Of a stretch of DNA of 4,709 nucleotides, positions 1,160 to 3,964 are shown in pieces; positions within the stretch are counted from its first letter, which is position 1; each line of letters starts with the position of its first letter. Both the position numbers and the translations under genes were made by a program. Source of the DNA: a virus (Duplodnaviria; Heunggongvirae; Uroviricota; Caudoviricetes); IMG/VR virus record IMGVR_UViG_2695420847_000008, one strand, 5' to 3'. Below the pieces are notes generated by a model. That model had not been told where the DNA came from. It was given only the letters and a program-made list of their open reading frames with translations, and did not search any database.

Positions 1160-1282
1160 GTGTCCGCGATATACAGTAGCGCAATAAATTCGCTGGTGGT
1201 TATTAATACCGTTCTTTCAGCTTGCTGGCTTTTTCGACAAGAGTTATTGGTGTGTCACGTTAACCGGAAAAGGGAAAAAGAC

Positions 1283-1480
1283 ATGCTAAAACAGCAGGAT
1301 ATGACAGAAACCGCCAGAGTGGTGTTTAATGAATTAAGCGTTACCGAACCGGCGACAGTCGGGGAGATAGCGCAGAATACTTACCTTTCACGCGAACGCT
1401 GCCAGTTAATACTGACTCAGCTGGTTATGGCGGGTCTGGCAGACTATCAGTTCGGTTGTTACAGACGCCTTCCGCAGTGA
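1283..1480 (+). CDS. Small (65 aa) hypothetical protein with a predicted winged-helix/HTH DNA-binding fold (PapI/FaeA- or MarR-like pattern)
   Basis: ATG at 1283 preceded by AGGG at 1271-1274 (8-nt spacing); stop TGA at 1478-1480. The listed ORF start at 1160 (GTG) abuts the terminator T-run and has no RBS, so the shorter start is preferred. Sequence TVGEIAQNTYLSRERCQLILTQLVMAGLADY has the helix-turn-helix plus Gly-containing wing pattern of small wHTH regulators. Homology is not verified. Confidence 0.45.
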   Translation: MLKQQDMTETARVVFNELSVTEPATVGEIAQNTYLSRERCQLILTQLVMAGLADYQFGCYRRLPQ

Positions 1481-1494
1481 AGGCTTTTTTATTT
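1467..1494 (+). terminator. Rho-independent terminator at the end of the small ORF
   Basis: Stem GCCTTC (1467-1472) / GAAGGC (1479-1484) with a 6-nt loop containing the TGA stop, followed by TTTTTTATTT. An identical copy lies at 2179-2206 inside the duplicated segment. Confidence 0.55.
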
Positions 1495-1507
1495 GTGGTA
1501 AATGGGC

Positions 1508-1538
1508 GGCTGGTGGGTGTTAGGGGCACCCACCAGCC
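1508..1538 (+). promoter_or_regulatory. Perfect 12-bp inverted repeat (GGCTGGTGGGTG-N7-CACCCACCAGCC) in the methyltransferase leader
   Basis: Read directly: 1508-1519 is the exact reverse complement of 1527-1538, with a 7-nt spacer TTAGGGG. A second hairpin (CTGCTTT-GCGCA-AAAGCAG) lies at 1580-1598. Both are repeated 712 bp downstream (2220-2250 and 2292-2310). Confidence 0.4.
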
Positions 1539-1630
1539 ATCTGCTCATGCGTTGGGTTCACAAGCAAACCTCAGGCCCACTGCTTTGCGCAAAAGCAGAA
1601 TGAGCCTATCAGAGACAGGCTTAATGATCC

Positions 1631-2350
1631 ATGCTTAATACTGTAAAAATATCCAGTTGTAAGTTAATCAACGCTGATTGCCTGGAATTTATCCAGACCT
1701 TACCGGAAAACTCTGTCGATCTGATAGTCACAGACCCGCCATACTTTAAAGTGAAGCCCGAGGGCTGGGATAACCAGTGGAAGGGCGACGATGATTACCT
1801 GAAGTGGCTGGACCAGTGTCTGGCGCAGTTCTGGCGGGTGCTGAAACCTGCCGGAAGTCTTTACCTGTTCTGTGGCCATCGCCTGGCATCTGATATCGAA
1901 ATCATGATGCGTGAACGCTTCAGTGTGCTGAACCATATTATCTGGGCGAAGCCGTCCGGACGCTGGAACGGATGCAACAAGGAAAGCCTGCGGGCGTATT
2001 TCCCCGCCACAGAGCGCATTCTGTTCGCGGAACATTATCAGGGGCCGTATCGTCCGAAAGATGCCGGGTATGCGGCGAAGGGCAGTGCACTGAAACAGCA
2101 TGTGATGGCCCCGCTGATTTCTTACTTTCGTGATGCGCGAGGCGGGTCTGGCAGACTATCAGTTCGGTTGTTACAGACGCCTTCCGCAGTGAAGGCTTTT
2201 TTATTTGTGGTAAATGGGCGGCTGGTGGGTGTTAGGGGCACCCACCAGCCATCTGCTCATGCGTTGGGTTCACAAGCAAACCTCAGGCCCACTGCTTTGC
2301 GCAAAAGCAGAATGAGCCTATCAGAGACAGGCTTAATGATCCATGCTTAA
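1631..2350 (+). pseudogene. Truncated N-terminal fragment of a DNA methyltransferase (about 170 aa authentic sequence plus about 69 aa out-of-frame extension), created by the tandem duplication
   Basis: The 239-aa ORF matches the intact gene through ...PLISYFRDAR, then reads the duplicated small-ORF tail and leader out of frame (GGSGRLSVRLLQTPSAVKAF...), stopping at TAA 2348-2350. It retains the DPPY catalytic motif but lacks the C-terminal FxGxG AdoMet-binding motif. Confidence 0.7.
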
Positions 2351-2852
2351 TACTGTAAAAATATCCAGTTGTGAGTTAATCAACGCCGACTGCCTGGAAT
2401 TTATCCGGTCGTTACCCGAAAATTCTGTTGACCTGATAGTCACGGACCCGCCGTACTTTAAAGTGAAGCCTGAGGGCTGGGATAACCAGTGGAAGGGCGA
2501 CGATGATTACCTGAAGTGGCTGGACCAGTGTCTGGCGCAGTTCTGGCGGGTGCTGAAACCTGCCGGAAGTCTTTACCTGTTCTGTGGTCATCGCCTGGCA
2601 TCTGATATCGAAATCATGATGCGTGAACGCTTCAGTGTGCTGAACCATATTATCTGGGCGAAGCCGTCCGGACGCTGGAACGGATGCAACAAGGAAAGCC
2701 TGCGGGCGTATTTCCCCGCCACAGAGCGCATTCTGTTCGCGGAACATTATCAGGGGCCGTATCGTCCGAAAGATGCCGGGTATGCGGCGAAGGGCAGTGC
2801 ACTGAAACAGCATGTGATGGCCCCGCTGATTTCTTACTTTCGTGATGCGCGT
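2141..2852 (+). repeat. Tandem direct duplication, copy 2 (712 bp), continuing into the intact methyltransferase gene
   Basis: See copy 1. After 2851 the sequence continues with TGCTGCTCTGGGG (intact gene), whereas copy 1 is followed by the duplicated GGCGGGTCTGG segment. Confidence 0.85.
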
Positions 2853-3401
2853 GCTGCTCTGGGGATAACGGCAAAACAGATTGCAGATGCCACAGGAAAG
2901 AAAAACATGGTGTCGCACTGGTTCAGTGCCAGTCAGTGGCAGCTACCGAACGAAAGCGATTATCTGAAATTACAGTCGCTGTTTGCCCGGGTGGCAGAAG
3001 AGAAACATCAGCGGGGTGAACTGGAAAAGCCACATCACCAACTGGTCAGCACATACAGTGAGCTGAACCGGCAGTATACGGAACTGCTGAGTGAATATAA
3101 AAATTTGCGGCGGTATTTCGGTGTGACGGTGCAGGTGCCGTACACCGATGTGTGGACGTACAAACCGGTGCAGTACTATCCAGGGAAACATCCGTGCGAA
3201 AAACCGGCAGAAATGTTGCAGCAGATAATCAGCGCAAGCAGTCGTCCGGGAGACCTGGTTGCAGATTTCTTCATGGGGTCGGGGGCGACAGTGAAAGCAG
3301 CGATGGCGCTGGGACGTCGTGCAACTGGCGTTGAACTGGAGACTGAACGTTTTGAGCAGACGGTGCGGGAAGTACAGGATTTAATCATTCGTAACGGATG
3401 A
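2343..3401 (+). CDS. DNA methyltransferase, N6-adenine/N4-cytosine family (beta-class permuted; PF01555-like), probably an orphan phage N6-adenine MTase
   Basis: 352-aa ORF. The N-terminal region has DLIVTDPPYF (motif IV, DPPY) and RVLKPAGSLYLF. The C-terminal region has KHPCEKPAEMLQQII...GDLVADFFMGSGATVKAAMALGRRATGVE (motif I FxGxG, AdoMet binding). This order of motifs is typical of beta-class amino-MTases. A middle segment (AALGITAKQIADATGKKNMVSHW) looks HTH-like. No adjacent restriction endonuclease gene is visible. Confidence 0.88.
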   Translation: MLNTVKISSCELINADCLEFIRSLPENSVDLIVTDPPYFKVKPEGWDNQWKGDDDYLKWLDQCLAQFWRVLKPAGSLYLFCGHRLASDIEIMMRERFSVLNHIIWAKPSGRWNGCNKESLRAYFPATERILFAEHYQGPYRPKDAGYAAKGSALKQHVMAPLISYFRDARAALGITAKQIADATGKKNMVSHWFSASQWQLPNESDYLKLQSLFARVAEEKHQRGELEKPHHQLVSTYSELNRQYTELLSEYKNLRRYFGVTVQVPYTDVWTYKPVQYYPGKHPCEKPAEMLQQIISASSRPGDLVADFFMGSGATVKAAMALGRRATGVELETERFEQTVREVQDLIIRNG

Positions 3402-3441: not shown

Positions 3442-3517
3442 GGCCCTTTAGCTCAGTGGTGAGAGCGAGCGACTCATAATCGCCAGGTCGCTGGTTCAAA
3501 TCCAGCAAGGGCCACCA
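3442..3517 (+). tRNA. tRNA with CAU anticodon, most likely tRNA-Ile2 (lysidine type, ileX/ileZ-like), alternatively tRNA-Met
   Basis: Manual cloverleaf: acceptor GGCCCTT/AAGGGCC, D-arm GCTC-AGTGGTGA-GAGC, anticodon loop CTCATAA (anticodon CAT), T-arm GCTGG-TTCAAAT-CCAGC, discriminator A and an encoded CCA. The sequence closely resembles E. coli ileX as I recall it. Confidence 0.8.
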
Positions 3518-3524
3518 TCACATA

Positions 3525-3601
3525 CCGCCATTAGCTCATCAGGAAAGAGCGCCAGCTTTCGAAGCTGGTTGCGCGGAGTTCGGGTCCCCGAAGGCGGTCC
3601 A
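3525..3601 (+). tRNA. tRNA-Arg (anticodon UCG), with non-canonical features; possibly degenerate
   Basis: Manual fold: D-arm GCTC-ATCAGGAAA-GAGC; anticodon arm CCAGC-TTTCGAA-GCTGG (anticodon TCG); T-loop TTCGGGT; 3' TCCA. Irregularities: A-A mismatch in the acceptor stem (position 6:67), A-C mismatch in the T-stem, and G rather than A at position 58. Confidence 0.55.
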
Positions 3602-3614
3602 TTATCTGTATCCT

Positions 3615-3691
3615 GCGTTGTTAGCTCAGCCGGACAGAGCAATTGCCTTCTAAGCAATCGGTCACTGGTTCGAATCCAGTACAACGCGCCA
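3615..3691 (+). tRNA. tRNA-Arg (anticodon UCU, reads AGA/AGG)
   Basis: Manual cloverleaf: acceptor GCGTTGT/ACAACGC, D-arm GCTC-AGCCGGACA-GAGC, anticodon arm ATTGC-CTTCTAA-GCAAT (anticodon TCT), T-arm ACTGG-TTCGAAT-CCAGT, discriminator G and an encoded CCA. Architecture resembles argU. Confidence 0.85.
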
Positions 3692-3731: not shown

Positions 3732-3964
3732 AAATATCTCACAATTCAGGCGGTTGACTGTTGTCTGGTTTGCGGGGAGTTTGTTAAAAGAAACTGGCAT
3801 GGTGAATCCCCCTGTGCGGAGGGGCGATCAGCAACCAGGTATATGGGATAATCGCGGATTCAGGTGCTGATACTGAATTCACCGGGAGGCACCCGGCACC
3901 ATGCTTTGCCACAAAAGTGTTGTTTCTGTTTTTCTCAAACTATCATCGTTATCCCTTTATTTCC

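Follow-up and report, generated by a model that had tools for sequence, protein, structure and literature searches.

The DNA of a Caudoviricetes virus (IMG/VR record IMGVR_UViG_2695420847_000008) contains, between a terminator-like hairpin and the start of a DNA methyltransferase gene, a perfect 12-bp inverted repeat followed by a second hairpin. The whole stretch of 4,709 nt that was analysed is referred to here as the window. The question raised by this locus is whether such a repeat represents an operator, recognized on the DNA by a dimeric protein, or a stem formed in the transcript, and what its role in front of a methyltransferase gene might be. Both possibilities had been put forward in an initial annotation made from the sequence. 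The window corresponds to the late-regulatory region of a Stx-phage-like lambdoid prophage, and the features relevant to the question are as follows (window coordinates; strand where assigned).

139–498: rusA gene
495–1058: gene for a Q-type antiterminator (Pfam DUF1133 and Phage_antitermQ)
around 1139–1160: hairpin followed by a T run
1283–1480, + strand: open reading frame (ORF) for a 65-aa winged-helix protein (ORF coordinates, phrog_331 match), listed for context
1467–1490, + strand: terminator-like hairpin with T run (terminator scan), which ends the small ORF and recurs at 2179–2196
1502–1548, + strand: P1ext and P1, together a long 5′ hairpin (MFE fold, RNAalifold)
1508–1538, + strand: P1, the perfect 12-bp inverted repeat with a 7-nt loop
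1509–1516, + strand: Chi octamer GCTGGTGG in the left arm of P1, with its complement (1530–1537) in the right arm
1540–1568, + strand: P2, an alternative helix in which TCTGCTCATG (1540–1549) pairs with CACAAGCAAA (1559–1568)
1574–1606, + strand: P3 hairpin, with outer stem GGCCCAC/ATGAGCC and inner stem CTGCTTT/AAAGCAG
1549–1634, + strand: P4, a long-range helix around P3 in which 1549–1565 pairs with 1619–1634
1631–2140, + strand: 5′ part of the methyltransferase gene, ended by a duplication junction
2204–2354, + strand: second copy of the leader (P1 at 2220–2250, Chi at 2221–2228)
2343–3401, + strand: full-length methyltransferase gene, 352 aa (Pfam N6_N4_Mtase)

Three tRNAs, a match to STnc100 and a DUF1737 ORF are also carried by the window and are listed after the methyltransferase.

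The inverted repeat and its surroundings in the window

The two arms of P1, at 1508–1519 (GGCTGGTGGGTG) and 1527–1538 (CACCCACCAGCC), pair at every position (100% complementarity) and are separated by 7 nt, exactly as first reported. The repeat is confirmed as real and non-random, since a perfect 12-bp inverted repeat with a loop of 3–10 nt was encountered in none of 300 dinucleotide-preserving shuffles of the de-duplicated window, and even arms of 10 bp had a shuffle mean of only 0.03. The 7-bp hairpin at 1580–1598, which had been described alongside the repeat, was also recovered as a perfect stem (1580–1586/1592–1598), and constitutes the inner stem of P3. The leader containing these elements is bounded by the terminator-like hairpin (1467–1484 plus the T run, to 1490), which forms its 5′ limit in the window allele, and by the methyltransferase ATG at 1631. 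This region folds better than shuffled sequences on both strands, with z-scores of −3.15 (+) and −4.25 (−).

The leader is present twice in the window as the result of a 712-nt tandem duplication, in which 1429–2140 corresponds to 2141–2852 with 97% identity over the first 300 nt. The duplication truncates the first methyltransferase copy and repeats the leader identically; the earlier observation that the leader is carried intact was borne out, with both hairpins recurring 712 nt downstream, and a covariance model of the leader (see below) scores the two copies equally, at 127.7 bits (1492–1642 and 2204–2354). The 60-nt sequence spanning the duplication junction (2111–2170) was searched for in 5,426 complete E. 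coli genomes and found in none, so that the second copy may represent a rare rearrangement or an assembly artefact.

The enzyme encoded downstream matches Pfam N6_N4_Mtase (E 4e-43) and is of the beta-class N6-adenine type, with the motif DPPY at residues 35–38 in the N-terminal part and FMGSG near residue 310 in the C-terminal part. It is 94% identical to the enzyme of phage 1720a-02, which has been described as very similar to M.EcoGII (Murray et al., PMC5778455), and through this match can be assigned, indirectly, to the M.EcoGII family.

Distribution, conservation and folding of the leader

A BLAST search with the 151-nt leader matched 59 phage records, including Stx2 phages, phiP27, SfV, mEp460, cdtI, phiNP and phages of Klebsiella, Morganella and Providencia, and detected the leader in 2,882 of 5,426 complete E. 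coli genomes, at up to eight places per genome. A protein-guided scan of one genome per species yielded 80 loci across the Enterobacterales. Prophages of Escherichia, Shigella, Klebsiella, Enterobacter, Morganella, Providencia and Proteus were found to carry the leader, and those of Xenorhabdus and Photorhabdus have a shorter form. A P1-like hairpin accompanied by a T run was seen in the relative from Proteus hauseri (L084). In annotated phages the genes are arranged in the order Q, terminator, small ORF, leader, methyltransferase and lysis genes.

A covariance model built on 44 leaders detects one match per long-form locus, always on the sense strand and with scores of 127–179 bits, and all 47 strong matches end 12 nt inside the methyltransferase ORF in the sense orientation; in every long-form locus the leader lies directly 5′ of the methyltransferase start. 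Nucleotide identity of the leader to that of the window (0.65–0.83) is at least as high as that of the methyltransferase coding sequence (0.62–0.83) and far above that at methyltransferase third codon positions (0.33–0.62), indicating that the noncoding leader is under purifying selection. The possibility that the segment encodes an N-terminal extension of the methyltransferase or another peptide was rejected, as there is an in-frame TGA at 1625–1627 and neither the ORF at 1456–1638 (frame 1) nor that beginning at ATG1502 is conserved. An Rfam scan (E ≤ 1) returned no family covering the leader, the Pseudomonas P26 match being antisense and sub-threshold (24 bits vs a gathering score of 36; E 0.07), and a full-text literature search for the arm sequence returned unrelated papers only. 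The leader carries no annotation in the phage records examined, and is an uncatalogued, widespread structured leader of M.EcoGII-family methyltransferase genes.

Comparison of these leaders bears directly on the nature of the repeat, and an alignment of this kind had been proposed at the outset as the means of separating covariation from strict conservation of a palindrome. Compensation was seen, and the palindrome was found not to be strictly kept. The P1 hairpin is predicted in all 26 distinct sequence variants, and for 21 of them the + strand gives the more stable fold. In the model-guided alignment (A5, which was fitted to the covariance-model structure), 7 of the 12 P1 pairs are changed on both sides, with 96.7% of cells paired. 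Perfect 12-bp complementarity is peculiar to the window allele, which is unique in this respect among the 26 variants (an identical leader occurs in the Escherichia albertii locus L005); in most relatives one base bulges out of the 3′ arm (CACCC-G/A-ACCAGCC), two G·U pairs are present in leaders of the SfV type, and Proteus and Providencia replace both arms jointly (GACTGTAAAGGTG/CACCCTTACAGTC), keeping the stem and losing Chi. The left arm hardly varies: ∼22 nt are invariant among the five phages compared first, and near-invariance is also seen in the set of 44 leaders, while variation, including 1-nt bulges and G·U positions, is common in the right arm. Over the whole structure, 92.6% of cells are paired vs 31–45% when partner columns are slid. 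Because the leaders are related by descent, the shuffle controls are not probabilities. The structure contains 126 G·U cells vs 33 A·C cells, and this excess, together with the greater stability of P1 on the + strand, suggests that it belongs to the sense transcript. Of the two options first offered for the repeat, the stable RNA stem has therefore gained support, from compensatory changes, G·U pairs, bulges and sense-strand bias across the 26 variants, and that of a dimeric operator has lost it (see below). The preservation of P1 by compensation points to a sense-strand RNA structure.

Two RNA-level candidates were tried and rejected. An antisense small RNA might have been expected from the z-score of −4.25 on the minus strand, but the wobble asymmetry favours the sense strand and minus-strand matches to the model are weak. 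For P1 as an intrinsic terminator, the stem is followed by ATCTGCTCATG, which lacks a U tract, and the terminator scan reports 1467–1484, not P1.

The repeat was rightly singled out as part of a structured leader, yet it constitutes only the apical part of a larger one with alternative helices. Four helices beyond P1 are supported by the comparison of homologs. P1ext, in which ATGGGC (1502–1507) would pair with GCTCAT (1543–1548), is coaxial with P1 and separated from it by an asymmetric internal loop of 4 nt (1539–1542); 97% of its cells are paired, with one-sided, wobble-type changes only. In P2, the pair between columns 57 and 83 of alignment A2 occurs as C-G (20), A-U (7), U-A (5) and U·G (4); covariation is also seen at two other pairs. 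The consensus pairs of P4 are GRUC/GAUC and AAG/CUU; three adjacent pairs are changed on both sides, and this covariation stems essentially from a single clade split, that between Enterobacteriaceae and Morganellaceae. P4 takes in the bases that immediately precede the methyltransferase AUG, and in the window allele it includes the AUG as well. P2 shares one of its strands with P1ext and the other with P4, such that P1ext, P2 and P4 are mutually exclusive; the segment CACAAGCG is the partner of the P1ext 3′ strand in P2 and of the pre-start bases in P4.

Roughly three quarters of homologs have the combination of P1ext, P1 and P4 around P3 as their MFE structure, and about eight have the P2 fold, with an open start region. 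The mean unpaired probability of the 15-nt start region is 0.34, vs 0.48 when the upstream leader is shuffled, and the region is less accessible than in the shuffled case in 41 of 44 sequences; the corresponding values for the window are 0.20 vs 0.51. The predicted effect of the leader on accessibility of the start region is moderate. In most homologs the AUG is left unpaired, with P4 on one side and a hairpin of the coding sequence on the other, and the enterobacterial consensus contains no Shine-Dalgarno sequence within about 15 nt of it. In the short form of Xenorhabdus and Photorhabdus, which was judged from per-sequence folds (RNAalifold gave no consensus on alignment A3, a matter of alignment quality), the 5′ hairpin is kept and the anti-Shine-Dalgarno sequence GGCUUUCC pairs with a GGAA Shine-Dalgarno sequence. 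Taken together with the covariation, these folds make it fairly probable that P1 is a helix of a ∼135-nt sense-strand leader that restrains translation of a toxic late gene in a Q-dependent operon.

Chi and possible RNA processing or protein binding at the stem

The Chi sequence in the left arm of the repeat was overlooked in the initial annotation. The exact octamer GCTGGTGG is found on the + strand at 1509–1516 and 2221–2228, with complements at 1530 and 2242, and most enterobacterial leaders carry Chi at the corresponding position. When the loci (322 kb) are read with the methyltransferase on the + strand, they hold 184 chi+ vs 37 chi− sites, where base composition predicts about 4.6 per strand. 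The cos-ended SfV genome contains 17 chi+ vs 5 chi− sites, with 13 of the chi+ sites in the rightmost 10 kb, and the leader Chi is co-oriented with this excess; cos lies outside the window. The chi+ orientation here would be the active one if RecBCD enters lambda-like DNA from the right cos end. Mosaic breakpoints also coincide with the element: homology to PhiR5_1 stops right after the P1 left arm, and that to phiSTEC1575-Stx2k right after P1ext. Chi may be related to these mosaic joints.

On this evidence it could be argued that Chi itself is the selected feature, as one of many co-oriented sites that protect the cos-proximal end of replicating phage DNA from RecBCD and give rise to recombination hotspots, and that the hairpin is secondary. 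This is unlikely. The invariance extends over ∼22 nt, beyond the octamer, changes in the right arm preserve pairing, and five enterobacterial leaders as well as those of Proteus and Providencia lack Chi and keep the stem by compensation. Since the surrounding few kb contain about a dozen more Chi sites, the one in the leader would be redundant, and P2, P3, P4 and the remainder of the conserved leader would be left unexplained. Chi is a DNA signal that needs no hairpin, whereas here the octamer, though exact and co-oriented with the local excess like other Chi sites, lies within an RNA stem that survives its loss. Chi nevertheless probably adds constraint on the P1 left arm, the near-invariance of which could owe more to Chi or to some binding partner than to RNA folding.

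A role for P1 and P1ext as an RNA processing or stability element, either an RNase III site or a protective 5′/3′ hairpin, is rather improbable, although it is compatible with the P1ext/P2/P4 relay and could provide its trigger. A cut here would detach the methyltransferase mRNA from the message upstream and might be enough on its own to release P2 and to switch on translation. P1ext and P1 form an interrupted helix of about 18–20 bp whose 3′ side carries an asymmetric internal loop, a shape resembling T7 and lambda RNase III sites, and the conserved methyltransferase module has its 5′ boundary at this hairpin, upstream of which the context varies. Against this, the 5′ hairpin of some short forms is only about 13 bp, too short for RNase III, whose sites take about two helical turns (some 20 bp or more) of largely continuous duplex, and nothing in the sequence separates a processing site from a passive clamp.

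The option of an operator draws on the product of the small ORF upstream. The 65-aa protein matches phrog_331, and its homologs at NCBI are named ‘TrmB family transcriptional regulator’ or, in some cases, ‘DprA-like winged helix’. The initial suggestion that it is a small winged-helix protein was upheld by an AF2 model with a pLDDT of 88.7, built with an alignment (a single-sequence model, pLDDT 53, was discarded), which has an H-H-H plus beta-hairpin fold and has as its fold neighbours both IclR/MarR winged helix-turn-helix domains and the RNA-hairpin-binding winged-helix domains of SelB. In C-box/Aca systems, which comprise the C-box operators of restriction-modification controller (C) proteins and the HTH autoregulators of Aca type, a small HTH-type gene is likewise found beside a palindrome and a DNA-modification gene, and Aca2 recognizes an inverted repeat in the DNA as well as the RNA hairpin encoded by that repeat. 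The perfection of the repeat in the window, the confident prediction of a neighbouring protein resembling IclR/MarR DNA-binding domains, and the widespread order of small ORF, leader and methyltransferase would all suit a C-box-like DNA operator, recognized by a dimer of this protein or by an HTH insert of the methyltransferase.

Such an operator is, however, very unlikely, as a symmetric protein site would not tolerate bulges in one arm and drift of its half-sites. The palindrome is imperfect in nearly all relatives, its half-sites being asymmetric and unequally conserved; the right arm usually contains an extra bulged base that shifts half-site spacing, the many G·U positions are mismatched half-sites when read as DNA, and pairing is asymmetric between the strands. 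The putative recognition helix of the 65-aa protein (RCQLILTQL) is unchanged while the Proteus-type stem differs. A tblastn search found no homolog of the protein in about 14 loci with intact P1, leader and methyltransferase (in L009 and L015 the ORF listing confirms that the small ORF is absent and that other genes lie upstream), indicating that it is not an obligatory partner. In further distinction from C-box/Aca systems, there is no promoter context, the site being located downstream of a terminator within a Q-driven operon.

Least probable of all is ermC/cat-type attenuation in which translation of a short upstream ORF from ATG1502 (MGGWW...) opens P1ext: the relay of three helices has the topology of attenuators, the Chi sequence reads as tandem Trp codons, and ATG1502, located in the P1ext 5′ strand, is invariant in 44 of 44 long-form leaders, but this invariance is explained equally well by P1ext pairing, several short-form leaders do not keep the ATG, no usable Shine-Dalgarno sequence precedes it, the ORF is 7 codons long in 19 of 44 leaders and otherwise ranges from 3 to more than 43, its frame relative to the methyltransferase varies, and the Proteus peptide differs.

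Proposed control of methyltransferase translation

M.EcoGII is a non-specific adenine methyltransferase that acts in any sequence context, is silent in the lysogen and is deleterious under constitutive expression (PMC5778455). A leader that is off by default, behind two terminators in a Q-dependent operon, would fit a gene of this kind. P1, stacked on the 6-bp P1ext, folds into a very stable 5′ hairpin. For P1 as a helix of a translation-restraining leader, it is proposed that this hairpin holds the 5′ strand of P2; P4 would then close the start region, leaving the mRNA poorly translated. If P1 and P1ext were opened or cut, P2 could form and the start region would be freed. The leader could in this way act as a fail-safe against translation of the toxic enzyme from read-through transcripts, and may set or gate methyltransferase translation late in infection.

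The closest functional precedent, by analogy and not homology, is the com-mom system of Mu, in which the small Com protein opens a translation-inhibitory mRNA stem-loop (PMC6483171). As in that system, a late phage gene for a toxic, DNA-modifying anti-restriction enzyme would have its start region held in mRNA structure, with a small ORF immediately upstream (PMC6483171); the predicted counterpart of the Mu inhibitory stem-loop is P4 or, in the short form, the anti-Shine-Dalgarno hairpin. Com, however, is a zinc finger protein, in contrast to the 65-aa winged-helix protein, which is missing from many loci and is only a candidate activator; the enzyme is a methyltransferase and not Mom, with no sequence similarity between the systems, and the leader is a relay of several helices that includes a long 5′ clamp hairpin. 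The arrangement also resembles the ermC and cat attenuators, in that the first of several mutually exclusive helices is predicted to decide whether the last sequesters the start site; P1ext, P2 and P4 share strands, and both conformations appear as MFE structures among homologs. It is distinguished from them by the lack of a conserved leader peptide with its Shine-Dalgarno sequence and of a known inducing ligand, and by a downstream methyltransferase that is itself without a Shine-Dalgarno sequence.

A more elaborate scheme, in which the leader is no passive brake but a three-state switch opened late in trans and the same 12 nt are dual-coded as an arm of the RNA clamp and as an active Chi site, is conceivable, though doubtful. 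P1 and P1ext might be opened by RNase III, by a small ligand or by the 65-aa winged-helix protein, which would act on the RNA hairpin in the manner of Mu Com, Aca2 or the SelB winged-helix domains. If the leader did function in this manner, genome-wide adenine methylation would be licensed only near the time of phage DNA packaging.

The locus illustrates that a striking perfect palindrome can be the allele-specific extreme of an RNA stem, and that Chi can sit inside a conserved RNA helix, both of which are relevant to the reading of mosaic breakpoints in lambdoid and Stx phages. Enzymes of the M.EcoGII type are widely used as reagents (PMC5778455), and how prophages silence and then deploy them had no earlier description; the leader represents a concrete, testable control point for this phage anti-restriction function.

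Methyltransferase start region

In the long-form leaders (the enterobacterial/Morganellaceae type of the structured mRNA leader directly 5′ of the M.EcoGII-family methyltransferase ORF), a Dam site, GATC, is located immediately upstream of the start codon (consensus TGATCYATG; window 1625–1630), and its GRTC partner is found in the 5′ strand of P4, the long-range helix that pairs the region just 5′ of the AUG. Conservation of GATC and GRTC is attributable to P4 pairing. A conserved hairpin is also present within the first 30 nt of the coding sequence, with ACTGT...ACAGT arms in most homologs:

Window 1640–1657 and 2352–2369; comparison loci, methyltransferase ORF +10 to +27: intra-ORF hairpin

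P4 on one side and this hairpin on the other thus leave a short single-stranded gap, which holds the AUG and the A-rich codons that follow it.

The 712-nt tandem duplication

Window positions 1429–2852 constitute a 712-nt tandem duplication in which neither unit is a clean recent copy of the other. Over their first 300 nt the units diverge by ∼3%, and most of the differences fall within the opening 100 nt of the methyltransferase ORF. The junction base (A at 2140) agrees with neither parent, and a search of 5,426 complete E. coli genomes did not recover the 60-nt junction. Together, these observations suggest either that two prophage alleles recombined unequally or that the assembly is chimeric.

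Chi sites, tRNA genes and STnc100

Chi sites and downstream RNA genes were located as follows:

Window 1192–1199: further Chi, co-oriented with the methyltransferase gene, between the first terminator after the antiterminator gene Q and the small winged-helix ORF
Comparison loci (many), about 2193–2206; window equivalent about 3035–3050: back-to-back Chi CCACCAGCTGGTGG, inside the methyltransferase ORF
Window 3442–3691: cluster of three phage tRNA genes, one called as Met (anticodon CAT) and two Arg (TCG and TCT)
Window 3768–3940: sRNA STnc100, strong Rfam match (108 bits, E 9e-24)

The first of these belongs to a regional excess of Chi in this orientation (184 vs. 37 in the loci). The back-to-back sites, which overlap, occur ∼700 nt into the methyltransferase gene in many homologs, and the window allele carries a degenerate version. 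The tRNA genes are arranged as they are upstream of stx2 in phiSTEC1575-Stx2k, and the STnc100 match is situated between this cluster and a downstream DUF1737 ORF, a position that in Stx phages is the site of the stx genes.

Possible module boundaries at P1

Mosaic breakpoints coincide with the leader element in two comparison loci, PhiR5_1 (L085, 1520–1540) and phiSTEC1575-Stx2k (L086, 1506–1570). In PhiR5_1, homology stops right after the Chi-bearing left arm of the P1 inverted repeat, to which the STnc100 segment is directly joined, the methyltransferase and tRNA genes being absent; in phiSTEC1575-Stx2k, P1 and its extension P1ext are retained, and the sequence after them is an AT-rich gene for an HTH protein. 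At L009 523–617, the 5′ part of the leader recurs as a second, decayed copy (CTGTGAAGATGGGCAGCGTGTGAGTGTTGTAGCACTCGACCAG...), 3′ of a terminator and 5′ of an unrelated 160-aa ORF; no winged-helix ORF was found at this locus. The P1 element seems to mark module boundaries. The Proteus hauseri locus (L084) does not have the long leader and instead contains, at about 1425–1470, a P1-like hairpin (AAGCTGATGG...TCATCGGCTT) that includes a Chi-like GCTGATGG and has a T run after it. This arrangement resembles an intrinsic terminator placed immediately 5′ of the methyltransferase gene.
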